Below, in pieces: positions 1,656 through 52,490 of a DNA stretch of 64,000 bases. The stretch lies in the NCBI GenBank assembly GCA_018818425.1, contig JAHISB010000026.1:525-64524 (forward strand). Reading direction: 5' to 3'. The notes under the pieces were generated by a model, which had not been told where the DNA came from, made no database searches, and saw only the letters and a program-made list of their open reading frames with translations. Position numbers and translations under genes: made by a program. How positions within the stretch are numbered: the first letter of the stretch is position 1; each line of letters begins with the position of its first letter. The DNA is from Patescibacteria group bacterium (GTDB lineage Bacteria; Patescibacteriota; Patescibacteriia; UBA1558; UBA10009).

Positions 1656-1817
1656 TTCAACCTCCTATAAAAGGACTTGGTTTATACCCTTTATTTCAAG
1701 GGTTGGATTTGATTTTTTTATCTAGTTGTTATGGTACTAACCCAAAACAATAGCATATTTCCTAGAAAATGTCAATGTTTGGCTAATTTCAGAGATTTTG
1801 TTATATTTATCAATAAT

Positions 1818-3479
1818 ATGATTGACCTAAAAAAATTACCATCTCAACCAGGCATTTACCCCGCACCAGTTTATAAGAATAAAATAAAAACCTCCTTAAA
1901 CTTCATGCCTAACTGGTGCGGGGTGTACAAATTCCTTGACCAGCAAGGCAAACTTTTATACATTGGCAAAGCTAAGAATTTGAAAAATAGAATTAAATCA
2001 TATTTTACAAAATCGGCTGATTTGACGCCGGCTAAAAAGTTGATGATTGAGAGAATTAAAAAGATTGAATTTACTGTTGTTTCTAACGAGACCGAAGCTT
2101 TGCTGTTGGAATCAACGTTGATTAAAAAACATCAGCCGCCTTTTAATGTTGAACTTAAAGACGATAAACATTGGCAGTATATAAAAGTTACGCTCAACGA
2201 AGCGTTTCCGAAAGTGGAAATTGTAAGGAAAATAACTAAAAACTTAAAACTGAAAACTAATAAAAAACCGAGATACTTTGGTCCTTATACTTCAGGCCTG
2301 GCTGTTAGACAAACCATTCGATTGATAAAAAAAGTTTTTCCTTACAGAACTTGTAATCGCGACCTTTCTAAACTACCGAAGGGGAGGGTCTGTCTGCAAT
2401 ACCATTTAGGCAGATGTTTGGGGCCGTGCGAAAAACTTTGTACCAAAAAAGGGTATGATGAAGTCATTAAACAAGCGGTTGATTTTCTTGCCGGAAAAAC
2501 TGGCGACATAATTAAAGACTTAAAACTGAAGATGCAAAATTCATCAGATAAAAAAGAGTATGAAAAAGCCAAAGTTTATCGCGACCAGATTCAAGCTATA
2601 GAAAAACTGACCGTTAAACAAAAAGTTGTTTCAACAAAACATGAAAATCAGGATTACCTTAACATTTTTAAAGAAAGAAACTTGGCCGCCGCCGCTTTAT
2701 TCAAAGTCAGGGACGGAAAATTATTAGACCAGTTGAATTTTACTTTAAAAAATGCCGAAATCTTTTCCGAAGCAGAGCTTTTAGAACAGTTCGTCAATCA
2801 ATATTATTCGCAGACGACTGATTTTCCCAAAGAAATGATTTTGCCGGTAAAAATTGACGTTCAGCTTAAAATTATTGTTCCGCAAAAAGGCGCTAAGAAA
2901 AAATTGTTGAATTTAGCCAAGGTCAACGCTAAAGAATATTTTTTGACTCAGCTGGCTTCGTGGGAGAAAAAAACCAAAGAAACTGATAAAAAATTAGAAG
3001 AACTTAAAAAAGTTTTAAATCTGACTAAAATTCCTCAAAGGATTGAGGGCTATGATATTTCCAATCTCGGCGGAAGTTTAGCTGTCGGCTCTATGGCGGT
3101 GATGACCAACGGACAGCCCGATAAAAACGAGTATCGCAAATTTAAAATTAAGACGATTAAAGGCGCCAACGACCCGGCCATGATTGGCGAGATTATTAAA
3201 AGACGGTTGAACAACAATTGGCCCAAGCCCGATTTAATGCTGATTGACGGCGGCCCGGCACAGCTCAACGCCGCTTTGAAACAAATTGATGAAAATAATA
3301 TTCCCATTGTCAGCTTAGCCAAAAAACAGGAAAAAATTTACAAACCTGACGGAAAACTGCCGCTTAAACTGCCAAAATTCTCCCCGGCTCTCCAGCTTTT
3401 GCAGCAACTCCGCGACGAAGCCCATAGGTTTGCTGTTTCTTATCATCGAAAGTTGAGGAAAAAACGATTGGTCGGGTAG
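1818..3479 (+). CDS. uvrC: excinuclease ABC subunit C (UvrC); likely start at the ATG at 1818 inside the 1731 ORF; C-terminal (HhH)2 region appears absent
   Basis: GIY-YIG motif GVYKFLDQQGKLLYIGKAKNLKNRIKSYF, UvrBC-interaction region and the RNase H-like endonuclease domain (RIEGYDISNLGGSLAVGSMAV, IDGGPAQLNAA). The protein ends right after FAVSYHRKLRKK. Confidence 0.85.
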   Translation: MIDLKKLPSQPGIYPAPVYKNKIKTSLNFMPNWCGVYKFLDQQGKLLYIGKAKNLKNRIKSYFTKSADLTPAKKLMIERIKKIEFTVVSNETEALLLESTLIKKHQPPFNVELKDDKHWQYIKVTLNEAFPKVEIVRKITKNLKLKTNKKPRYFGPYTSGLAVRQTIRLIKKVFPYRTCNRDLSKLPKGRVCLQYHLGRCLGPCEKLCTKKGYDEVIKQAVDFLAGKTGDIIKDLKLKMQNSSDKKEYEKAKVYRDQIQAIEKLTVKQKVVSTKHENQDYLNIFKERNLAAAALFKVRDGKLLDQLNFTLKNAEIFSEAELLEQFVNQYYSQTTDFPKEMILPVKIDVQLKIIVPQKGAKKKLLNLAKVNAKEYFLTQLASWEKKTKETDKKLEELKKVLNLTKIPQRIEGYDISNLGGSLAVGSMAVMTNGQPDKNEYRKFKIKTIKGANDPAMIGEIIKRRLNNNWPKPDLMLIDGGPAQLNAALKQIDENNIPIVSLAKKQEKIYKPDGKLPLKLPKFSPALQLLQQLRDEAHRFAVSYHRKLRKKRLVG

Positions 3480-10424: not shown

Positions 10425-11186
10425 TCAATCGTCCTTTTGATTTTCACTGAATAAATGCCCCCTAACGGTTATTGCCGGCAACAAAAGAAAGCTTGTTACA
10501 GTTTCTACCTCAACTGGAACTAAGTCTTTCTCCCTTGCCCAAAGCGTAATCTCCCCTCCAGGAAAAAGGTTGTCTTTGGGGTCTAAAGTTATTCTAATCT
10601 TCCAGCATTTTATTTTTTCTTCCTGAACTTTTTTTTCCGCTTTTTTCTTAACCTCTATCCGCACCGGCTTCCAGGCGCTTTTTATCCCGTCCGAATCATG
10701 GCCGATGATATAAAAGGTATCAACCTTGCCAACTTCCGGACTATAATTCCCTTTAAGTAAAAAAATGGAACTAAGCGCATCGTTGGGTTGATGATCTCCT
10801 ATTCTTAAAGTGTCCAGCAGACTATCGCCGGAAAAATGGTAGATAAGCTGGCAGCCATAATCTATCTGCCATATTTCCTCATTAACATCAGTCAACTTGT
10901 GGTAAATTCTTTGAACACAACCATTACTATCAATTTGTACTTGGGCAAAATTATTTACCTTTTTGCCTAAAGCAGAACCCCAGCCATGAAAAGTCAGGAT
11001 AAGATTGTTGTTTTCCGCTTTTTTACAGACTAAACTAGCTTCACCGGCCTGACTTCTAGGAAAGCCAACATACCGCACATTCCAAAACAGTTGGTATTGA
11101 TACTCCTCCACAATGATTTTTTGTTGAGCGACGGCCGCGGGGCGTACGCTCAACATCAAGATTATGATGATTGCTAAGCGTTTCAT
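10425..11186 (-). CDS. hypothetical secreted protein
   Basis: Signal peptide MKRLAIIIILMLSVRPAAVAQQ if started at the internal ATG 11186 (the ORF extends to 11228). No recognisable family. Confidence 0.45.
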   Translation of the reverse strand: MKRLAIIIILMLSVRPAAVAQQKIIVEEYQYQLFWNVRYVGFPRSQAGEASLVCKKAENNNLILTFHGWGSALGKKVNNFAQVQIDSNGCVQRIYHKLTDVNEEIWQIDYGCQLIYHFSGDSLLDTLRIGDHQPNDALSSIFLLKGNYSPEVGKVDTFYIIGHDSDGIKSAWKPVRIEVKKKAEKKVQEEKIKCWKIRITLDPKDNLFPGGEITLWAREKDLVPVEVETVTSFLLLPAITVRGHLFSENQKDD

Positions 11187-11277
11187 CGCTCGTTCTCCTT
11201 TTGTTAAATCAACGAACGTTTCCACCATCTAACTAAATTTAACAGTCCTTGTCAAGCGCATAAATTACTGATAAAAT

Positions 11278-12267
11278 GTGGTTATGACCAATCAAAAAAT
11301 ACTTTTCTCCGGTATTCAACCAACCGGTGAGATACATCTTGGCAACTATTTAGGCGCCTTAAAAAACTGGGTTGATTTGCAGAATAAGTATAGTTGCTAT
11401 TATTCCATAGTTGACCTTCATGCGATTACCATTGATTATGAACCGAAAAACTATCAGGAAAAAATTCTTGATACGGCCATGGATTTGTTGGCTATTGGCC
11501 TTAACCCCAAAAAATCAGTTCTTTTTGTCCAGTCGCGCGTTCCCGAGCACACCGAACTGTGCTGGCTGTTTAATACTTTAATTCCCATCGCCGAACTGGA
11601 GCGCATGACCCAGTTTAAAGATAAGTCCCAGGAACATAAAAAGAATATCAACGCCGGACTTTTTGATTATCCTGTTCTGCAGGCCGCTGATATTCTTTTG
11701 TATCACGGCCAAGTTGTGCCGGTGGGCGAAGACCAGCTGCAGCATTTAGAACTGGCCAATAAAATCGTCAGAAAATTCAATAACAAGTTCGGAGAATATT
11801 TTAAAGAAGTTGAGCCGGTCATCAGTTCCGGCGCCAGAATTATGTCGCTAGCTGACCCGGCAAAAAAAATGAGCAAGTCCTTAGGACCGGCCCATTATAT
11901 TTCTATTAATGATACGCCTGATGTCATTAAGAAAAAGGTGATGAAAGCTGTTACCGATACGGGCGAGGCAAAAGAAATGTCGCCGGGAGTAAAAAATCTA
12001 CTTAGACTTCTTGAGCTTTTAACCGATTCCAAAACTTTCCAAAAATACCAAAAAGTTTACGATAATAAATCAATAAGATATTCTGATTTAAAAACAGAAC
12101 TGGCTGACGCTATCATCAAACATTTAAAGCCAATTCAAGAAAAAAAGAAAGAATTGATGAAAGATAAAAACAAAGTTCAAAAAATTCTTGATACCGGCGC
12201 CAAAAAAGCGCGAAGGGTTGCGCAAAAGAATATTGTGGAGATAAAAAAGAGGATGGGGTTAATGTAA
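11278..12267 (+). CDS. trpS: tryptophan--tRNA ligase
   Basis: HIGH-type motif TGEIHLGNYLG, KMSKS motif KKMSKSL, class I aaRS TrpRS layout, about 329 aa. Confidence 0.9.
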   Translation: MVMTNQKILFSGIQPTGEIHLGNYLGALKNWVDLQNKYSCYYSIVDLHAITIDYEPKNYQEKILDTAMDLLAIGLNPKKSVLFVQSRVPEHTELCWLFNTLIPIAELERMTQFKDKSQEHKKNINAGLFDYPVLQAADILLYHGQVVPVGEDQLQHLELANKIVRKFNNKFGEYFKEVEPVISSGARIMSLADPAKKMSKSLGPAHYISINDTPDVIKKKVMKAVTDTGEAKEMSPGVKNLLRLLELLTDSKTFQKYQKVYDNKSIRYSDLKTELADAIIKHLKPIQEKKKELMKDKNKVQKILDTGAKKARRVAQKNIVEIKKRMGLM

Positions 12268-18063: not shown

Positions 18064-18795
18064 TTATTGCTTCTTCCCAATCGCCACCACATTTACTCTT
18101 CTTTCAGGTATTTTACTTTGAGGATTCTTATTGATAAAAACTTTTTCAACCAATAATCCCGATTTTTTTATAAAGCCTTTCAATTCTCTTTTAGTAAAAG
18201 CATAAATATAACGCTGGCCTAAAATTTGGCCGTTGGGCAGTTTCCAGGGTTTGAAAAAATCTTTCCAAGAAATTTTCTGACTAAATTGATTAAAAAAATA
18301 TTTAAGATACGGCTTATGCCACAAGTGCCAGTTGGTCATTAATAAGTATCCGCCCGGTTTTAAGACCCTTCGTATTTCGCTTAACGTTTTAAGACGCAAT
18401 ACTTTTGTCGGCAAATGATGAAAAGTAGCAATACAAAAAATCAAATCAAAATAATTATCTTTATATGGCAATGTTGTCATTTCGCCGGTTTGGAATTTGG
18501 GATTTGGATATTGTTTGTTACTTGTTTCTTGTATCTTGGGGTTTTTATTTTTAGCAATTTCAATCAATTTCTCACTATTATCTAATCCATAATATTCAAC
18601 CTTGAAATCTTTAAGATACGAGAAAAAAAGCCGTCCATTGCCGCATCCCAGGTCTAGAATTTTTTGCCCTTCTTTGATATACTTGCTAAACAGCTCAAAC
18701 TCTGCCCACGGCGCATAGCGGGTTTGAGAAAAATGTTCGGCGATTTTGTTGTAGTTATTCTTGGTGTCCTTGATTATTTTTTCTGATTTATTCAT
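18064..18795 (-). CDS. class I SAM-dependent methyltransferase
   Basis: Motif I ILDLGCGNGRL, motif post-I YGLDNS, motif II IFCIATFHHL. Probable start MNKSEK at 18795 (the ORF extends to 18852). Contains a low-complexity insert KNPKIQETSNKQYPNPKFQ. Confidence 0.7.
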   Translation of the reverse strand: MNKSEKIIKDTKNNYNKIAEHFSQTRYAPWAEFELFSKYIKEGQKILDLGCGNGRLFFSYLKDFKVEYYGLDNSEKLIEIAKNKNPKIQETSNKQYPNPKFQTGEMTTLPYKDNYFDLIFCIATFHHLPTKVLRLKTLSEIRRVLKPGGYLLMTNWHLWHKPYLKYFFNQFSQKISWKDFFKPWKLPNGQILGQRYIYAFTKRELKGFIKKSGLLVEKVFINKNPQSKIPERRVNVVAIGKKQ

Positions 18796-18814
18796 ATAGT
18801 AATAATTCTCTGAA

Positions 18815-18960
18815 AGGTCTTGCCTGTCATTGCGAGGACACTGAGCGAGCATAGCGAGTCGAAGTGGACGAAGCCAATCCCATTATTGAATGAACGTTCG
18901 TAATACAAGGGGATTGCTTCACCCCTTCGGGGTTCGCAATGACGGAAAGAGGCAAGGCCT
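18815..18960. repeat. MITE-like element, family A copy 1 (TIR TGTCATTGCGAGG / CCTCGCAATGACA, outer AGGTCTTGCC/GGCAAGGCCT)
   Basis: About 146-bp element with terminal inverted repeats and an internal AATCCC/GGGATT hairpin. Near-identical copies at 24201-24344 (inverted core) and 32445-32589. Confidence 0.75.
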
Positions 18961-40458: not shown

Positions 40459-41525
40459 CCTACATTTTACCCTTTACCCTCAAGCGCAACACTTGGTAAT
40501 TTAGTTGATTTAGTATAAAGCTCATTAAAAACTTCTTTTGGCGTTTTATACCCAAGTTTTTTTCTAGGCGTATTATTCATCATTTCAATAATAGCAGAAA
40601 TTTGTTCCTGTGAGTAATTAGCGAGCGAAGCTCGCTTGGGAATAAAGCGCCGCAGGCGGCCAAAAGTATTTTCAATAATCGGTTTTTCCCATGAGGAATA
40701 CGGATGGCAGAAAAAGGTTTCAACATTTAGTTTTTCATACTTAGCGTTTTCCACGCCATTATCAAGTGTCATTGATTTAACTATTTTCTGATGCGGACTC
40801 AAAACATCTTTCAGTCCGTCCATAGAATATTTCAATCTGGCTGCCTTGAGCCCCGGTAGAAAAAGGGATTTCCGCTCTACTGCTCCAACGAATGTCTCCT
40901 GCTCGTATTTCGGTCGTCCCAGAGTATCGCCTTCAAAATCGCCAAAACGTTTCTGCTCGGCGACTATATCAGGGCGAAAATCAATAAATACGCGGTTAGG
41001 AATGATAGTTTTAGCAATTTTGATTGTTTGTCTCTTCTTTGGATGATAACGTTGATGCGGCAGATATTTACATAAATACTGACCACGGCTGGAATAGCAG
41101 AATTTATAAACGCTTTTAGCCGAGATAACAGCTTGGCCGTTATTAAGATAAGCGATGCGGCCGGCAACTTCCTCCGGCGACCAATTAGCCATCAATCCGA
41201 CAGCCACTTTAATTTCCAGGTTCGGATTATCGACAATTTTCATTCCCTGGTATTTTGACATTCTGCGTTTCAATCGAGCCTTGGTTTGCGCTTTGCGCGG
41301 GTCATAGGCGTCCCTCGCGCTATTAGTCTTGATTTCTCTGCTTACCGAAGAGTGGTTCTTCCCAATAGCTCTTGCTATATCCCGATGGGAATAACCTTTC
41401 TTCAGTAGGATGGAGATTTCATCTCGATCCGACTGTTTGAAGTGTTGATAACTCATAGTATTTTATTAATTGGTTTTGCCAATTATACTATACCTGAGTG
41501 TTGCACTTCAAAGGTAAATTTACGG
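40459..41525 (-). mobile_element. IS30-family insertion sequence (about 1.07 kb) with imperfect roughly 30-bp terminal inverted repeats
   Basis: Left end ...CCTACATTTTACCCTTTACCCTCAAGCGCAACACT (40459-40493) is inverted relative to the right end AGTGTTGCACTTCAAAGGTAAATTTACGG (41497-41525). Single transposase ORF inside. Confidence 0.65.
40467..41456 (-). CDS. IS30 family transposase
   Basis: N-terminal HTH (SHRDIARAIGKNHSSVSREI), DDE catalytic region typical of IS30 (DFEGDT..., ...LDNGVENA...), 329 aa. Confidence 0.8.
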   Translation of the reverse strand: MSYQHFKQSDRDEISILLKKGYSHRDIARAIGKNHSSVSREIKTNSARDAYDPRKAQTKARLKRRMSKYQGMKIVDNPNLEIKVAVGLMANWSPEEVAGRIAYLNNGQAVISAKSVYKFCYSSRGQYLCKYLPHQRYHPKKRQTIKIAKTIIPNRVFIDFRPDIVAEQKRFGDFEGDTLGRPKYEQETFVGAVERKSLFLPGLKAARLKYSMDGLKDVLSPHQKIVKSMTLDNGVENAKYEKLNVETFFCHPYSSWEKPIIENTFGRLRRFIPKRASLANYSQEQISAIIEMMNNTPRKKLGYKTPKEVFNELYTKSTKLPSVALEGKG

Positions 41526-44686: not shown

Positions 44687-44971
44687 ATAATTTAAAGTTA
44701 TTACTTGCTTAAGTGTTTGTTATTATACTAAATTTTTCCTGTTTTTACAAGTTAATTTGTTGATAAGTGAAAAATGATGATCTGCGACCCCTGCCTGCCG
44801 GTCTTCGACTCTGTGGTATGAGCCCTTAGGTTCAGACGGATGAGTAGCAGATATAATCCATTTCTATAACACAAAAACAGCTCCTTTTTACAGAAGATGT
44901 TTTGGATATTAAAAAATTAGTTAGTATTTGGAAATTAGAAATTGAGATTTGGAAATTCCCCCGAAGGGACG

Positions 44972-44983
44972 TGGGGTGGCTAT
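44972..44983. repeat. 12-bp direct repeat of the tRNA-His 3' end (TGGGGTGGCTAT vs TGGGGTGGCTAC at 50842-50853): putative attL of the island
   Basis: 11/12 identical nt to the 3' terminus of tRNA-His located 5.9 kb away, in the same orientation, bracketing the helicase-nuclease island. Confidence 0.5.
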
Positions 44984-45047: not shown

Positions 45048-45833
45048 TTAGTCCAAATTATTAGTGCCTTCTCTTTGTTTTATTAAATGATCAATTTCTC
45101 TTTCTTGCTCATTTATATTATCGATAAAATTTCCGTTATCACTTCTTTTATACTTGAAGAGATTTTTGGCAATTTTTATTAAACTTAAAGCGTTTTTTAA
45201 ATCTTCTATTGTATCTTTATCTCTAAGTAGTAAGGCTGTTGTATAAAGATTGATCCATCCTTGACCTAAAATTTTATCGGAATATTCTTTAATAACATCT
45301 TTTGCATAAATGTACATTGGTAAATCAGCTGTCATTTTATCTTCTAATTTTAAAAAGTCCCTTGGCTCTATAATAGTAGCTGACCCTTTTATATACTGGC
45401 ATCTGACATAATCTATTATTAAATCTCTAAAAAAATCATACCTGTACCAAGGTTTATATCTCTCTGAAAGATGTTTTTTTTCGTTGTGAAGCTGAGGTGT
45501 GTATCTTTTATACTTCAATTCACTTAAATCCTCTAAATGAATTGGCTTATCTTTAAGCCAAAAAAGATATACTGGAATTGGAGATCCTTCCCAATATTTT
45601 ATTGTACTCTTTTTAAGATGAGGTTCGTTTTGTGTATATTTTACCTGGACATAAAAAAGTAAATTTGTAGGATACTGATCTCTTATAAGTTCACAAATAA
45701 AATCATTTCCTATATCCATACTTCCATCTATTTTATGTACCAAACAAAATTCCGATAAAAGATATTGGACAAAAGATTCGCCAATATTTCCTTTTCTTTT
45801 TGAATCAATATATTTAGGAAGGTCTTTTTTCAT
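45048..45833 (-). CDS. DUF4365-like protein with predicted PD-(D/E)xK restriction-endonuclease-like N-terminal domain
   Basis: N-terminal GNIGESFVQYLLSEF..VHKIDGSMDIGNDFICELIRD..LLFYVQVKYT pattern (E19, D40/D44, E48, K65) fits DUF4365/PD-(D/E)xK; C-terminal half helical. AT-rich codon usage like the adjacent helicase gene. Confidence 0.5.
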   Translation of the reverse strand: MKKDLPKYIDSKRKGNIGESFVQYLLSEFCLVHKIDGSMDIGNDFICELIRDQYPTNLLFYVQVKYTQNEPHLKKSTIKYWEGSPIPVYLFWLKDKPIHLEDLSELKYKRYTPQLHNEKKHLSERYKPWYRYDFFRDLIIDYVRCQYIKGSATIIEPRDFLKLEDKMTADLPMYIYAKDVIKEYSDKILGQGWINLYTTALLLRDKDTIEDLKNALSLIKIAKNLFKYKRSDNGNFIDNINEQEREIDHLIKQREGTNNLD

Positions 45834-45894
45834 AAACTTATTTAGAGTCGGGCAGAGTGTATTTATATACCTAATCTGTGCTTATAGATATTTA

Positions 45895-48800
45895 TTATTC
45901 AAGATAAAGAGTATAGCCACTTTCTCGTAACTTTCCATCCTTAATCAGTTTTTCAATAGTTGTACTTATAATTTTAGTGTCCTCTGACCAATTCCTGTTT
46001 AAACTGAATAATCCCATAACAGCTTTAGGCAGGTGTTCTTTAGCAAAACCAAATTGGTCTTCTACGAGATATAATACCGAATTAGCAATCTCATAAGGTG
46101 AGATTTGCTCAAGGCTTCTTTGGACTTCATCCGTGGGCAATCGAAAGTCATCGGCTTCAAGACCATTAGCATATAGAAACCCTTTTTGTGTGTATATTTT
46201 ACGACCTCGCGATAACAGTTGGACTGCATTTTTTACATTACTTTTAATGTTTGAACCTGCTTTCATTACTCCACATATTTCCTTGAGGCGATTTATTAAA
46301 AGTGACTCATAAATTGGAGACTCGATCTGGACAATTTTAAAAATTAAATTAGCGAGATTTAGCTGTTGAGATTTATTTAATAGATATTTTGTGTTTGATT
46401 TTCTTGATTGTTCATACTTAATATATGGTTTACCCGAGGAGTATTGTTTATTTGGTGATAGTTCTTTTGAGTTGATTGAATCGAACGAATTATTTATATT
46501 ATCTTGCTCTTTTCGTTGAGAGGTCTTTAAGGGGGGTGCCTGAATTGATTCTATACTGGGTGATTTAAGGGCGTTATTTGCACTTTTAATTATGTTATTC
46601 AGCGTATCTTCTCTATTACGAAACCAATCGGTTGACCATACCCTATGTATTTTCCAGCCCTGGTTTTTAAGTACCTGCTCCCGTATTATATCCCTGTCTC
46701 TAGCCGTTCTAGCGCTATGATAGGTGGCTCCGTCACATTCAATACCTAATAAATAACGATCTTTGTCTCGTGTATCTCTAATTGCTAAATCGATACGATA
46801 ACCACTCGATCCAATCTGCTCATCTACAATGTATCCTCTATCTTTTAAAGCTACGGCTACTCCATCCTCAAAGTCATTTGTTTCGTAGTCTGATAATGTA
46901 ACTGGTTCGGCAGGAATGTTCGCATCACGCTCCGAATACTCTATATAGTTTTTTAACATTATGGCGCCCTTATTTCCCGGGTTGACTCCAGCCAGTTCAC
47001 GACTTTGCATACTTGTAACTAATATCGTTTGCCATTTAGCTCTAGTGACTAGAACATTTAATCTGCGCCAACCACCCTCTTTGTTTAAAGGGCCAAAATT
47101 GAAGCTTAGAGCGCCTTCCGGTGTTTTCGCGTATCCAATACTAATAATTATAGTATCTCGTTCATCACCTTGAACATTTTCAAGCGACTTTACAAAGAAA
47201 GGTTCTGCTTTATTTTTATCAAATAGTGGCGTAAGTGTAGGTTTTGCCGAAAGTAAGTCGTCTAAAGCATATTCGATAGCCTCTTTTTGCGAAGCATTCA
47301 TTGCAGCTATGCCAATTGATCTGTCAGGGAATTCATCTAATTGTTGAATAACAGTCTCTGCCACTTTTTTTGCCTCAACTTTATTTGTACGACTTTTACC
47401 TCTATCCCAAGTACCTTCTGGTGTATATATCAAATGAATACCACGACCCTTGCTTGAAGTTGTTGCAGAAGGAAAGGTAATTAAGTGGTTATCATAGAAA
47501 TAGTGATTAGAAAACTTAATTAAACGTTCATCTTTACTTCGATAGTGCCATACAATTTTTGACTCTTCAAAAATGGGTCTGACCGCGACACAATTATCGA
47601 GCAGTGATTCAAGAGGTTCATAATCATCGTAATCATCACTTTCCTCTTCTTCAAGAAAAATTGAGGAAGCCTTAAAAAACGATGTCGGAGGTAATTGTTT
47701 TTCGTCTCCTGCTACCACTACCTGTTTCGCTCGTAATATTGATGGTATTGCCTCCGCGGTCGGTAATTGTGATGCTTCATCGAAGACAACCAAGTCAAAA
47801 TTAATTGATCCCGGTTTAAGAAATGTTGAAACAGATAGTGGACTCATAAGCATACAGGGTTTTAACGCCTGTAACACTCTTGGAATTTCTGCAAATAGTT
47901 TGCGAAGAGGCTTAAAACTTTTCTTTTTTTGTAGTTCTTTTTGAAGTATTCCAATTTCGCTGTGGTTTCCAGTCGTTGAACGCGCAGTTACAACTCCGCT
48001 CGCGGGGTCAGCAGCACCAGATTGTATATTCCTTAATCTTGATTTACCAATCTCTTCTTGAAGATCTTTAAATCTAGCTATTTGTTCTTCTCGTAAGCTC
48101 CCAGCAAACTCTTTTAAGCCAGGATTTTGATCCATAATTACTTCTACCCATCGCGAATAAAACTTTTTTTCAAAGATTATTGAAGCATTTGACGAACTCA
48201 CAGAGTTGAGTGAATTTAACAGTTCACCTAAATCAGAATCTTTACATTTTGAAATTGTCGCCTGTAAGACTTCCCACTCGTGTAATTTATTAAATGAGGA
48301 GAGTATTTCTTTAATTCTAGTAATTACCTTGATTATCGTGGTATTGAATAACGGTTGCTTATTATCAGTGAAACCATCTGGCCAATGTTTTTCTATATCT
48401 TTTATAATTGAAATTAATTCTACGTCTTGAATCATTTGAGATAAGAAAAACAGCGACTTTCTTATATTGTCATCAAGTATTTGATTTTCCTTGGGTTCGT
48501 TTATGATATTTTGTAGTATGGCCTCTTTAAGTTTGATGGCGGCCTTGTATTCAATTATTTGTAGCTTTAGATCCGTTGGCTCTATTGATCTTGTAGAATA
48601 GGTATGTAAATTATTATTGTTGTTCACTAACCATTTGTCTATTCCGATAATATCTTCACAAATTTTACTATAGTTTAATAATGATGAGTAAGTTATTTTG
48701 ATTCCCGGTTTTAGACTTGTTCGAAGCGAAGAGTGCCAACGCCAATAGCTAGGTTTAAAAAACCTTGTCCATAATGAGAATTCTGATTTTAAAGATTCAA

Positions 48801-50670
48801 GTAATTTTTGTAATTCTATGGGTTCAATTTTTGCAATATTCTGGTATTCTTTTTGTAAGTTCTGTTTTTTTATTTGCTTGTTTAATGCTTCCTCAAGTAA
48901 AGACACTGCCTTATTTAATTCTTGGATATTTAGTGCGCGCCATTCTGGAGGAAGTTCCTCGGTTTGCGATAAATACGAAAATACATCTCCTAATTTTGAT
49001 AAGTTTTCAAATGTAAAACCTGGCCATTGGGATATTACCAAGTCAGCTAGTTGGTTCAATTTTAAATTAATTTCTATATATTTTTCAAGGATATTTTTAA
49101 GTCCTCGTTTCAATATATCTACAGAAAGTTGAGTTTTAGAATCCCGCATAAATCCTCTCCAAGGATGTTTTTTTCGGGAATCAAAAACTGTCGATTGTGA
49201 CTCAAGACTCCTTAGTAGTTCTAGCTTTTTCTCAAGTTGCTCCTTGCTTACTCGTGTGACATCTGCCCAAGGTAGATCAAAATCAAGATCTCTATAACTA
49301 TGGTATTTTTCGATTAAACCTATAGCATTATAAATTGTTTTACCTAGAGGGTCTTTTTTGGAATGAATTTCTTTGACGTAATTATTAAGATTATTTCTAA
49401 TTTTTATAAGCTCCTCCAACTCGTCATTAAACGTATCACTGGTTCTTGTCACAGGTGATTCAATTGTTTTTTTTAATTCATCAATAATTTTTGTTTTTCC
49501 AGCCTTTGTACTATGTGCCTCTAGGCAAAAGCGACCCAGCCCAAGTTTTACTAATCTATCATAGACTACATCTAATGCAGCCATTTTTGCGCTGACAAAT
49601 AATACCTTTTTGCCTTTTCCTAAAGTATCAGCAATCAAATTAGAAATAGTTTGACTTTTTCCCGTACCAGGAGGGCCGTGAACTACTAAGTTTCTTTCTG
49701 CTGTAGCAATTGTTAATGCGTGTAATTGACTTGCGTCTGCGGGTAGAACTGGAATGGGCACGGTTTCTGGAGTTTCCATTTCGTCTAAATCCTCCCCTAA
49801 AGCTTCTGATGTTTCAGATTCTTTGTTTGCGTTCGCAAAGGCTGCAACAATTTTATTATTATAAGCTTCTTCAATCATATTTCCTAAATCAGTGTAGATA
49901 ACAAGTGATTCAAATGAGAATGTGCTTAGCCAAGTATTGTCTACTACTCGCCAGTTTTGCTCTGATGTCTTTTTTTGTACGGCGTCTAAAAATTGTTTAA
50001 GTGATTCTTGATTGGGCTCATCTATAAATTCAGGATCTATAAATTCAGGTAGGTTTACGTGATGTCTCTCTCGTAAATAAAGTTTTAATGCTGGATTAAC
50101 TTGTAGTTCCTCGTCAGACATTTTTAAAAGCATATGTGAATTGGAGCCTCGATTTTCCAATTGACAGGGAACTAATAGTAATGGTGAGGATGATTCGCCT
50201 AAAATTGGATCATCCCATTCTAAAAGGCCAAACGTTAAGTGTAATGTAGTTACACCCCTTTCTTCTAGTGTTGTTCTGCCATTATCATAAATTCGTCTCA
50301 TTATTCTGAATAAGTCTTTGGGTTCGGATTTAAATTCAATATCACCCGGCTTAACAATGTATTCGGGTTCCTCATCTTCTTCTAAGAGTTTATTTTGGTT
50401 TAACTCTTCATCCTTTCTTTTTCTTTTATTCTTTCTTTTTACAATTGGCATTTTGAGCGAGTGGGCATCTATAGCTATTGAGCTAAACAATTCTCCCGTT
50501 TCGGGCTTAATGGTAAGTAGTTTACTGACTCTGGATCGGTTTATTCCAAGCAATGGATTGCCCTTACTCAAATCTAATAAACGTTCGCGCCATTTTTTTA
50601 TCTGGGCATCTATACGTTCTATGTTTATTGTAGATTTATTTGTTGTATCCACTTTTTTTGTATATATCAT
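45895..50670 (-). CDS. 1591-aa multidomain helicase-nuclease: DUF4011 N-domain, SF1B Upf1/Dna2-like helicase (AAA_11/AAA_12), Vsr/DUF559-like PD-(D/E)xK endonuclease domain, DUF3320 C-domain
   Basis: Walker A VHGPPGTGKSQTISN, motif II VVFDEASQLP, motif V/VI QGDERDTIIIS and VLVTRAK. Nuclease block YRIDLAIRD...LLGIECDGATYHSARTARDRDIIREQVLKNQGWKIHRVWSTDWFRN (DUF559/Vsr-like). AT-rich relative to flanking genes. Confidence 0.85.
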   Translation of the reverse strand: MIYTKKVDTTNKSTINIERIDAQIKKWRERLLDLSKGNPLLGINRSRVSKLLTIKPETGELFSSIAIDAHSLKMPIVKRKNKRKRKDEELNQNKLLEEDEEPEYIVKPGDIEFKSEPKDLFRIMRRIYDNGRTTLEERGVTTLHLTFGLLEWDDPILGESSSPLLLVPCQLENRGSNSHMLLKMSDEELQVNPALKLYLRERHHVNLPEFIDPEFIDEPNQESLKQFLDAVQKKTSEQNWRVVDNTWLSTFSFESLVIYTDLGNMIEEAYNNKIVAAFANANKESETSEALGEDLDEMETPETVPIPVLPADASQLHALTIATAERNLVVHGPPGTGKSQTISNLIADTLGKGKKVLFVSAKMAALDVVYDRLVKLGLGRFCLEAHSTKAGKTKIIDELKKTIESPVTRTSDTFNDELEELIKIRNNLNNYVKEIHSKKDPLGKTIYNAIGLIEKYHSYRDLDFDLPWADVTRVSKEQLEKKLELLRSLESQSTVFDSRKKHPWRGFMRDSKTQLSVDILKRGLKNILEKYIEINLKLNQLADLVISQWPGFTFENLSKLGDVFSYLSQTEELPPEWRALNIQELNKAVSLLEEALNKQIKKQNLQKEYQNIAKIEPIELQKLLESLKSEFSLWTRFFKPSYWRWHSSLRTSLKPGIKITYSSLLNYSKICEDIIGIDKWLVNNNNNLHTYSTRSIEPTDLKLQIIEYKAAIKLKEAILQNIINEPKENQILDDNIRKSLFFLSQMIQDVELISIIKDIEKHWPDGFTDNKQPLFNTTIIKVITRIKEILSSFNKLHEWEVLQATISKCKDSDLGELLNSLNSVSSSNASIIFEKKFYSRWVEVIMDQNPGLKEFAGSLREEQIARFKDLQEEIGKSRLRNIQSGAADPASGVVTARSTTGNHSEIGILQKELQKKKSFKPLRKLFAEIPRVLQALKPCMLMSPLSVSTFLKPGSINFDLVVFDEASQLPTAEAIPSILRAKQVVVAGDEKQLPPTSFFKASSIFLEEEESDDYDDYEPLESLLDNCVAVRPIFEESKIVWHYRSKDERLIKFSNHYFYDNHLITFPSATTSSKGRGIHLIYTPEGTWDRGKSRTNKVEAKKVAETVIQQLDEFPDRSIGIAAMNASQKEAIEYALDDLLSAKPTLTPLFDKNKAEPFFVKSLENVQGDERDTIIISIGYAKTPEGALSFNFGPLNKEGGWRRLNVLVTRAKWQTILVTSMQSRELAGVNPGNKGAIMLKNYIEYSERDANIPAEPVTLSDYETNDFEDGVAVALKDRGYIVDEQIGSSGYRIDLAIRDTRDKDRYLLGIECDGATYHSARTARDRDIIREQVLKNQGWKIHRVWSTDWFRNREDTLNNIIKSANNALKSPSIESIQAPPLKTSQRKEQDNINNSFDSINSKELSPNKQYSSGKPYIKYEQSRKSNTKYLLNKSQQLNLANLIFKIVQIESPIYESLLINRLKEICGVMKAGSNIKSNVKNAVQLLSRGRKIYTQKGFLYANGLEADDFRLPTDEVQRSLEQISPYEIANSVLYLVEDQFGFAKEHLPKAVMGLFSLNRNWSEDTKIISTTIEKLIKDGKLRESGYTLYLE

Positions 50671-50841
50671 GAAATCTCACTAATTTTTATTTAATTGTTT
50701 CATTCCTTAATCTTACACAAAAACCACAAAGTTTGCCAACATTCCCTATATTCCCTACCTAGTACAAACTAGGATAGTGAAAACTCCAATTCTTCCCTAA
50801 CCCAAAAGCAAAAACAGACTTTTCGCCTATTCTTTGCCATA

Positions 50842-50917
50842 TGGGGTGGCTACTGGGAATCGAACCCAGGTTTCCGGGACCACAACCCGGTGCACTAACC
50901 GTTATGCTATAGCCACC
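50842..50917 (-). tRNA. tRNA-His (anticodon GTG), with encoded G-1
   Basis: rc: G-GTGGCTA..CCGGG-TTGTGGT-CCCGG..CTGGG-TTCGATT-CCCAG-TAGCCAC-C-CCA; the extra 5' G pairing with C73 is diagnostic for tRNA-His. Confidence 0.85.
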
Positions 50918-51007
50918 ACGATTAAAAAGTTACAAGATACAAATTCCAATTTCCAAACAAATTACAAATCTCAAATTTTAAATTCCAAATAACTTATTTC
51001 TGGGAAT

Positions 51008-51320: not shown

Positions 51321-51395
51321 TGGTGACCCCACGGGGAATCGAACCCCGGTTGCCAGGATGAAAACCTGGTGTCCTAACCACTAGACGATAGGGCC
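51321..51395 (-). tRNA. tRNA-Glu (anticodon TTC)
   Basis: rc GGCCCTA..GTCTAGTGGTTAGGAC..CCAGG-TTTTCAT-CCTGG..CGGGG-TTCGATT-CCCCG-TGGGGTC-A-CCA. Confidence 0.85.
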
Positions 51396-51462
51396 AAGAT
51401 TAATTTTGAATTTTGAAAATAGAATTTTGAATATGTTAATTTGCGTCAACCAGGATGCCTGC

Positions 51463-51545
51463 CCGCCTCTGGCGGGAAAACCTGGTGTCCCTGCCTGCCG
51501 GCAGGCTAACCCCTCGCCTCTGGCGGAATTAGACGATAGGGCCAT
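51463..51545 (-). pseudogene. scrambled partial copy of tRNA-Glu 5' half interrupted by a family-D palindrome footprint
   Basis: AAAACCTGGTGTCC (tRNA-Glu internal) + CCTGCCTGCCGGCAGG + ...AATTAGACGATAGGGCC (tRNA 5' end); a further 5'-end fragment AGACGATAGGGCT lies at 51645-51657 with the same upstream flank. Confidence 0.5.
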
Positions 51546-51947
51546 TTAAAATTTCCAATTACTAATTTTCAATAAATTCTCAATGTTTAAATTTTCAAAC
51601 AATTTCCAATAATCATTATTTGTGTTTGCGTCAGAGCAGAATTAGACGATAGGGCTATGATTAATTTTGAATTTTGAATTTCGATTGAGTTTTGAATGAT
51701 AAATTTTTAAATTTCCAATAACCAGTTACCAGTTACTGATTACTGGTAATAAAAAACTATAGCCAATACTAACAGAATTTTAACAAAAAGTCAACCCTTG
51801 CTCCCTACATTCTGCTCCCAAGCTTAATTAATTCAAAAGGACAACTAAGTTGAGGTAAAATAATTAAGCTTTGGATTAGAATTCGCGTTTTGACAAAATA
51901 TAATTATAGTATATACTTAGTATATAAATAGTATAACTATTAAATAT

Positions 51948-52223
51948 ATGAATTCAACTATTATTAACATCAAAACTAACCCTAAAGTTAAAAGTGAGGC
52001 CAAAAAAACAGCAGCTGATCTAGGGCTATCTTTAAGCGGAGTTTTAAACGCCTATCTTCGGCAGTTTATCAGAACCAAGTCTGTTTATTTTAGTTTGAAT
52101 GAAGAAAATCCCTCCCCTTATTTATTAGAAGCTTTAAAGGAATCGGAAAAACAGAGAAAAAAGAAGGGGGTTCACTCTTTTGATAATCCTGAAGAGGCAA
52201 TTCATTTCTTAAAAAATACATAG
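51948..52223 (+). CDS. type II antitoxin, RelB/DinJ family
   Basis: Ribbon-helix-helix N-term and DinJ-like KSEAKKTAADLGLSLSGVLNAYLRQFIRTKSV; 4 nt upstream of the toxin gene. Confidence 0.65.
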   Translation: MNSTIINIKTNPKVKSEAKKTAADLGLSLSGVLNAYLRQFIRTKSVYFSLNEENPSPYLLEALKESEKQRKKKGVHSFDNPEEAIHFLKNT

Positions 52224-52226
52224 GGC

Positions 52227-52490
52227 ATGAAGATTGAATACTCCAAACGTTTTGTTAAAGAATTCAAAAAATGTTCTCCTAAAGTTAAGCAGACTTTTAT
52301 TAAAAAACTGGAACTTTTTAGTACAGACAAAAATCATCCGCTTCTAAATAACCATAAATTATCAGGCAAGCTTAAGGATTACAGAAGTATAAATGTTGAT
52401 GGTGATTTTAGAGCTATTTTTCAAGAGTTTAATAATGGACAAACAATTTATTTTGTAATGATAGGCAGTCATAGTCAATTGTATTCATAA
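52227..52490 (+). CDS. type II toxin, RelE/ParE superfamily (YafQ-like mRNA interferase)
   Basis: 87 aa; YafQ-like blocks FKKCSPKVKQTFIKKLELF, DYRSINVDGDFRAIFQ, IYFVMIGSHSQLY. Confidence 0.65.
   Translation: MKIEYSKRFVKEFKKCSPKVKQTFIKKLELFSTDKNHPLLNNHKLSGKLKDYRSINVDGDFRAIFQEFNNGQTIYFVMIGSHSQLYS

Follow-up and report, generated by a model that had tools for sequence, protein, structure and literature searches.

The sequence examined here, referred to as the window, is a stretch of 64,000 nucleotides from a Patescibacteria group bacterium (assembly GCA_018818425.1, contig JAHISB010000026.1, positions 525 to 64,524 of the forward strand); coordinates given without a locus number are positions within it. 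On its minus strand, two nuclease-type genes lie side by side; they start 172 bp beyond a cluster of tRNA-Glu, tRNA-Arg and tRNA-His genes of the same strand. The first (45895..50670) begins with an ATG and encodes a 1591-residue helicase-nuclease of the short-form ProA, or PADLOC PDC-S37, type; its open reading frame (ORF) cannot be extended, as the frame opens two codons before the ATG (stop-to-stop 45898-50676). The second (45048..45833) encodes a 261-residue protein of the Pfam DUF4365 nuclease family, and a spacer of 61 bp (45834..45894) separates the two. The initial annotation of this locus had described the large protein as a Hhe-type antiphage helicase-nuclease, and the two genes as an apparent operon that would be an undescribed two-gene variant of such a defence. 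The analysis reported here suggests that they are probably two separate accessory nuclease genes sharing an acquired islet at tRNA-His, and not a dedicated two-gene system.

The domain order first proposed for the large protein (DUF4011, helicase, Vsr-like nuclease, DUF3320) was recovered, with every domain scoring above its Pfam curated cut-off. All of these domains are encoded, like the gene itself, on the minus strand. The N-terminal DUF4011 domain (50074..50583; residues 30-199, 86.6 bits) has a fold that was unmatched among solved structures. It is followed by a superfamily 1 (SF1) helicase that is split in two. The first part of helicase domain 1A (49243..49737; residues 312-476) belongs to AAA_11, is related to IGHMBP2 and Upf1, and carries the Walker A motif GPPGTGKS at residues 332-339; the AAA_11 match (70.9 bits) comprises these residues and a second stretch. 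An insert of about 460 residues (47851..49242; residues 477-940) then separates Walker A from Walker B. It is poorly conserved except for scattered Trp and Pro residues, and a Pfam search of residues 401-950 returned no families. The remaining SF1B core (46936..47850; residues 941-1245) contains the Walker B motif DEAS (residues 964-967), motif III, AAA_12 (residues 1042-1220, 57.9 bits) and motif VI, GGWRRLNVLVTRAK (residues 1199-1212), together with the motifs VVAGDxxQLPP and QGDERD. The helicase was initially described as having intact Walker A/B and motif VI, and this is borne out: motifs I, II, III, V and VI are all present, invariant in close homologues and largely so in distant ones. 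When solved structures were searched by sequence, no full-length relative was found; only SF1B cores were matched (IGHMBP2, Upf1, Sen1 and Dna2), those of Upf1, Sen1 and Dna2 at profile positions 944-1213.

The nuclease domain (46585..46872; residues 1267-1362) is a PD-(D/E)xK domain of the Vsr family, detected by Pfam as MTES_1575 (120.7 bits against a cut-off of 38.2) with an overlapping DUF559 match (23.2 bits). The nuclease block quoted in the initial annotation, IECDGATYHSARTARDRDIIREQVLKNQGWKIHRVW, is found at residues 1310-1345. Within the domain, D1313, G1314, Y1317, R1324, D1325 and R1326 are invariant over diverse homologues, and the stretch R1324-D-R-D1327 is conserved; D1294 is invariant in close homologues and nearly so over the diverse set, and E1311 and H1318 are invariant in close homologues. 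The C-terminal DUF3320 region (45898..46359; residues 1438-1591) contains a Pfam match at residues 1438-1477 (30.5 bits). MTES_1575 has been described as a Vsr-family restriction endonuclease, and DUF3320 as overlapping winged helix-turn-helix modules (Anantharaman et al. 2013, PMC3710099). Proteins of the MTES_1575 type show the same order of SF1 helicase, Vsr-family endonuclease and winged helix-turn-helix (DUF3320) as the large protein, but MTES_1575 itself adds HEPN and transglutaminase domains that the large protein lacks.

The large protein was placed among named families using the NCBIfam and PADLOC models themselves, on which its relationship to ProA and PDC-S37 rests. Its best PADLOC match was PDC-S37 (1215.5 bits), with which it is collinear over the full length and from which it shows no structural difference (residues 18-1586 against model positions 4-1542 of 1550); the same model was matched by 24 of 24 diverse homologues tested. 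NCBIfam ProA (NF058533) aligned to residues 12-1559 in one stretch, at profile positions 348-1903, and scored 1210.7 bits, below its curated cut-off of 1500. ProA shares the collinear DUF4011, SF1 helicase, Vsr-like nuclease and C-terminus with the large protein; the difference lies in an N-terminal head of about 350 residues with a transglutaminase-like region (Transglut_core), which is present in the long form and missing here. Homologues of about 1950 residues from the same search set exceed the ProA cut-off (1847-2279 bits), and a 1603-residue homologue from Pseudomonas moorei resembles the window protein (ProA 1467 bits, profile 355-1903). Because the PDC-S37 match is full-length and ProA profile positions 1-347 are unmatched, the large protein is classified, on the strength of these profiles, as a head-less short form of the ProA lineage, equivalent to PADLOC PDC-S37; its relationship to Hhe is more distant.

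Hhe (Gao et al. 2020) is likewise a single polypeptide with DUF4011, an Upf1-like helicase and a Vsr-like nuclease. It confers protection on E. coli against lambda, T3, T7 and PhiV-1, and this protection is lost when E1731, in the putative active site of its nuclease, is replaced by alanine (E1731A); E1311 of the ECDG motif in the large protein is likely to be the equivalent of Hhe E1731. Hhe is about 200-300 residues longer, however, and only part of each Hhe model was matched: NCBIfam Hhe_antiphage (NF042953) gave 796.2 bits against a cut-off of 2000 (best stretch 1020-1712 of 1797), and PADLOC Hhe (PDLC02194) gave 553 bits (best stretch 1266-1813 of 1911). Both ProA and PDC-S37 are thus nearer to the protein than Hhe is. 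The earlier suggestion of a Hhe-type protein holds in so far as the two are related single-polypeptide helicase-nucleases, but the protein is not Hhe itself, and the PADLOC models favoured PDC-S37 over Hhe by 1215 bits to 553. The family as a whole is very widespread: it forms over 5900 clusters at 90% identity, has members in both bacteria and archaea, and has relatives on 492 plasmids, many of them conjugative. PDC-S37 is a single-gene type, and the large gene likewise had no recurrent neighbour in the 83 non-redundant homologue loci described below. A ProB-like partner was also sought for the long form, and none was found when NCBIfam models were run on 60 genes neighbouring 17 long-form ProA loci.

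The small gene is, as had been proposed, a DUF4365 gene lying 61 bp downstream of the large one (31.2 bits against a Pfam cut-off of 24.3). In its AlphaFold model (predicted local distance difference test score 89), the N-terminal 125 or so residues form an alpha/beta domain of the DREN-like PD-(D/E)xK type, and residues 130-258 form a helical bundle for which no significant match was found among solved structures. The nuclease domain (first 120 or so residues) matches the DREN nuclease of SPARDA both in structure (Foldseek E 1e-5, probability 1.0) and at the sequence level. D44, E48, Q63 and K65 are invariant among homologues of the small protein, and Q63 and K65 align with Q62 and K64 of TmuRE, a DUF4365-APAZ nuclease whose active site was proposed at these positions by sequence alignment and in which Q62A/K64A was made to inactivate it. 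The fold and the Q-x-K positions are therefore common to the small protein and the SPARDA DREN. SPARDA consists of APAZ fused to DREN together with an adjacent short Argonaute; the small protein has no APAZ, and its gene is flanked by the helicase-nuclease and HSP20 genes with no Argonaute. An assignment to SPARDA was accordingly rejected. The DUF4365 nucleases of SPARDA are effectors under sensor control, in which DREN activity depends on assembly, and the small protein may similarly be a solitary, regulated DREN-type nuclease. Its family is tiny, with 14, 79 and 295 representatives at E <= 1e-30, 1e-10 and 1e-3, respectively, among 1.84 billion; the named members are all Patescibacteria, and no phage-borne relatives were found.

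The proposed partnership was examined by a census of both gene families. On the helicase side, it comprised the seven nearest homologues (51-55% identity) and 80 genome loci of distant homologues with 6-kb flanks; on the nuclease side, it comprised 4 + 31 loci that code for a homologue of the small protein. A hidden Markov model of each family was run on all six-frame ORFs of the gathered loci. Window aside, the two families occurred together in none of the 86 helicase loci (83 non-redundant) and none of the 35 nuclease loci (about 30 non-redundant). The pair was otherwise seen only in locus L125, a second assembly of the same locus. Among 57 same-strand ORFs downstream of helicase homologues, Pfam detected no DUF4365 and no family more than twice. 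No two of the seven nearest homologues share a context, and three lie next to recombinases; the seven are followed by a DUF3276 gene, a 345-residue unknown, nothing, 179-residue unknowns (in two cases), an RNase_H_2 gene, and 85-residue and HNH genes. The neighbours of the small-nuclease homologues were equally varied, and no recurrent neighbour family was found among them. They include a type I restriction-modification (RM) methylase-specificity-AbiU2 fusion with an AAA_13 ATPase, N6_N4 and D12 methyltransferases, serine recombinases, AbiEii, AAA_14-DUF4143 and a convergent DEAD/ResIII helicase. Each gene family thus occurs alone, in varied and often mobile or defence-type contexts.

Some of the gathered loci hold arrangements that can be recorded in their own right. 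An RNase_H_2-domain gene lies 29 bp downstream of the large-gene homologue in L123 (5945-7477), an HNH gene lies two genes downstream in L124 (11106-11783), and PDDEXK_1 and DUF2779 genes lie divergently upstream in L122 (2354-3190); these nuclease-type neighbours could be due to chance in mobile contexts, or could reflect a loose tendency of the large gene to accompany nucleases. An unannotated ORF of identical length, 179 residues, lies downstream of two of the nearest homologues (L122, 8538-9077; P0013 contig, 10754-11293). A small-nuclease homologue is found within a compact defence-type cluster in L103 (641-9056), in the order 1068-residue type I RM methylase-specificity-HEPN AbiU2 fusion, AAA_13 ATPase overlapping the start of the DUF4365 gene, DUF4365 gene and serine recombinase.

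The setting of the two genes in the window was also investigated. The tRNA-His(GTG) gene (50842..50916, minus strand) ends in an 11-mer, TAGCCACCCCA (50842-50852), a second copy of which lies in the same orientation (44972..44982, minus strand) at the far edge of the islet, 65 bp past the stop of the small gene. The 11-mer has two matches in the 64 kb, against 0.01 expected. Between the two copies of this direct repeat lie 5859 bp (5.9 kb) with a GC content of 0.342, compared with 0.413 for the rest of the window (standard deviation 0.014, minimum 0.388, in equal-size windows). The large gene has a GC content of 0.355 and the small gene 0.279, a difference of 7.6 points that hints at the absence of a long common history; no other ORF of the window is as low as the small gene. 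Two other window ORFs of low GC content (18064-18852, 0.345; 1731-3479, 0.371) might also be of foreign origin. No integrase, methyltransferase or antitoxin candidate was found on the islet in the ORF and Pfam listing.

The surrounding genes are housekeeping genes, among them those for RNase III, NusB, L32, argininosuccinate synthase, PurD-like and Ddl-like proteins, and the relatives of HSP20 point to Komeilibacteria-like lineages. Two syntenic relatives, L126 and L128 (70-72% HSP20 identity), retain the order HSP20-DUF3006-VanW-L32-NusB/NUDIX-RNase III, and neither islet gene is present in them. Upstream of HSP20, both carry TsaD, a cold-shock gene and a tRNA-Glu that points the other way, so that their tRNA content and orientation differ from those of the window. 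Locus L125 was considered as an empty-site relative and rejected, as its HSP20 is identical and it represents the same locus. Insertion of the islet is supported by the syntenic relatives, although the exact junction was not reconstructed. Because of its low GC content, its bracketing by the tRNA-His repeat and its absence from L126 and L128, the pair is a small, horizontally acquired, integrase-less islet at a tRNA integration site in a variable region, and the large gene is clearly accessory in this lineage.

The tRNA-Glu(TTC) directly upstream of HSP20 in the relatives (L126, 3682-3756; L128, 8264-8338) is opposite to that of the window, and no tRNA-Arg or tRNA-His is found there, which implies an inversion or rearrangement at the HSP20 junction besides the islet insertion. 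A 33-nt inverted repeat (44925-44957 and 50959-50991; 85% complementary) has its arms immediately outside the two copies of the tRNA-His repeat and was considered as the end of an element. It was rejected because its AT-rich, TTGGAAATT-type sequence recurs upstream of other tRNAs (also at 51545-51567 and 51705-51727), and a generic repeat of intergenic or promoter-like type is more probable.

These observations suggest that the window holds two separate accessory nuclease genes, side by side on an acquired tRNA-His islet, and this is considered the probable explanation. The large gene is predicted to encode a self-contained, single-polypeptide helicase-nuclease of the DUF4011 family, to which the anti-phage Hhe and ProA belong. 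The neighbouring DUF4365 gene is most likely coincidental, seen in this organism only, and not a conserved partner. As no conserved partner was found, the undescribed two-gene variant is not supported.

A mechanism for the large protein can be proposed from its domain identities and the genetics of Hhe, and it extends to substrate, polarity, trigger and phage phenotype as conjecture. The C-terminal winged-helix modules, possibly with DUF4011, would bind nucleic acid, and the Upf1/Dna2-like SF1B motor would use ATP to translocate 5' to 3' on a strand of the invading DNA. The Vsr-like PD-(D/E)xK domain would then cleave the tracked DNA, so that phage or plasmid genomes would be destroyed. Overall, this would amount to a one-protein 'find, reel in and cut' defence. 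The small nuclease is probably restrained by its helical C-terminal domain or by its oligomeric state, and would act as an independent defence or conflict nuclease.

Several points weigh against this interpretation. Some DUF4011 genes have the character of core genes: one is a boundary gene of cDHS1 in P. aeruginosa and is found in every isolate, and long-form ProA loci have mostly housekeeping genes around them. The short form would take its defence label from PDC-S37, and the PDC systems of PADLOC are candidates only, nominated by their embedding in BREX, DISARM or type I RM loci. The census consists mostly of distant homologues (28-46% identity), and the nearest clade amounts to seven loci. 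The shared strand, the 61-bp gap without a terminator and the single repeat-bounded islet would be compatible with co-transcription and cooperation.

The first two of these points would also be expected if the large protein were a housekeeping DNA repair or recombination helicase-nuclease, acting in end processing in the manner of Dna2 or AddAB and not in immunity. The helicase core is nearest to IGHMBP2, Upf1, Sen1 and Dna2, mfd is among the neighbours of long-form ProA loci, and uvrA or uvrC lies several kb from the homologue in L005 and L007. A housekeeping gene would not, however, be expected to be absent from syntenic relatives, low in GC content and adjacent to a tRNA with an att-like repeat; nor would its closest homologues be expected in seven contexts, three of them by recombinases, or its relatives on so many plasmids. 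The closest named families, Hhe and ProA, are moreover annotated as anti-phage, Hhe with experimental support. A housekeeping role is therefore considered unlikely.

The helicase-nuclease and the DUF4365 nuclease might alternatively form a functional two-gene defence operon, in which, for example, the former senses or unwinds foreign DNA and the latter is a second effector, or the reverse. No terminator-like hairpin was found in a scan of the 61-bp spacer. In a promoter scan, the number of promoter-like sites (24, against 23.7 expected after shuffling) was uninformative as to separate transcription. Both genes lie on one islet and both are absent from the syntenic relatives, and the sensor-controlled DUF4365 effectors of SPARDA offer a precedent. 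Homologues of the small nuclease also adjoin large NTPases: AAA_13 with an overlapping start in L103, AAA_14-DUF4143 in L113, SMC_N/AAA_21 in L003 and a DEAD/ResIII helicase in L001. NTPases are abundant in defence islands, however, and such adjacency is expected by chance. The large protein has a nuclease of its own, its relatives have no conserved partner, the pair recurs in none of the loci of the census other than the second assembly of the same locus, and the differing GC contents hint at separate histories. A two-gene operon is thus quite improbable: of the apparent operon first described, the common strand, the short gap and the shared islet stand, but these amount to adjacency and are not evidence of joint function.

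It is very unlikely that the small gene is the endonuclease of an RM-type or toxin-type selfish module, inserted beside the helicase gene and irrelevant to it. Its homologues adjoin DNA methyltransferases, type I RM specificity and methylase genes, recombinases and AbiEii, its GC content is the lowest among the window ORFs, and its family is tiny, with named members all from Patescibacteria; but neither a methyltransferase nor an antitoxin candidate is on the islet, the homologues share no recurring neighbour, and the idea is compatible with, and largely contained in, that of two separate accessory genes. There is as little probability that the DUF4365 protein, small and restricted to Patescibacteria, works as a portable effector nuclease and joins any adjacent large NTPase (AAA_13, SMC-like, AAA_14-DUF4143 or, here, the SF1 helicase-nuclease); the pair would in that case have formed newly, as a two-component defence module specific to the lineage of this candidate-phyla-radiation bacterium.

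The wider surroundings of the two genes contain further features. An IS30-family transposase gene (40467-41456, minus strand; NCBIfam transpos_IS30, 178.8 bits) lies between VanW and L32 (39968-40186). In L126 and L128, VanW is directly followed by L32, so the IS30 element, some 3.5 kb away from the islet, is a second mobile insertion specific to this lineage. Just past the tRNA cluster, on the opposite strand, is a pair of genes for a RelB antitoxin and a YafQ-type toxin (51948-52490, plus strand); L128 also holds YafQ-like, HicAB, Fic and RVT genes upstream of HSP20, which suggests a region that is variable and rich in mobile elements. The 5' part of tRNA-Glu with its upstream flank (TAGACGATAGGGCC...) occurs three times in 51382-51711. 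One copy, at about 51440-51545, is tRNA-Glu-like, has no T-arm and is interrupted by the GC-rich palindromic inserts CCGCCAGAGGCGG and GCCTGCCGGCAGGC; it may represent a pseudo-tRNA, or a scar left by a rearrangement. Four copies of the 12-mer CCGGCAGGCAGG are present (6011, 42045, 44790 and 51490; 0.18 expected). Its copies at 44790, upstream of HSP20, and at 51490, in the pseudo-tRNA, are intergenic, and the sequence could represent a small palindromic repeat element, rich in GC, within an AT-rich genome.

The locus does not reveal a new system, as the family of the large gene has already been catalogued by PADLOC and NCBIfam, and it provides a worked example of why adjacency alone does not establish a system at the operon level. 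The short form without the transglutaminase-like head of ProA, PADLOC PDC-S37, is a clean candidate for asking what that head adds. The pair itself represents a minimal, two-gene, integrase-less islet of defence type at tRNA-His in a reduced Patescibacteria genome, and the small gene is a member of a tiny family of solitary DREN-type nucleases that seems confined to Patescibacteria and has a candidate regulatory domain.

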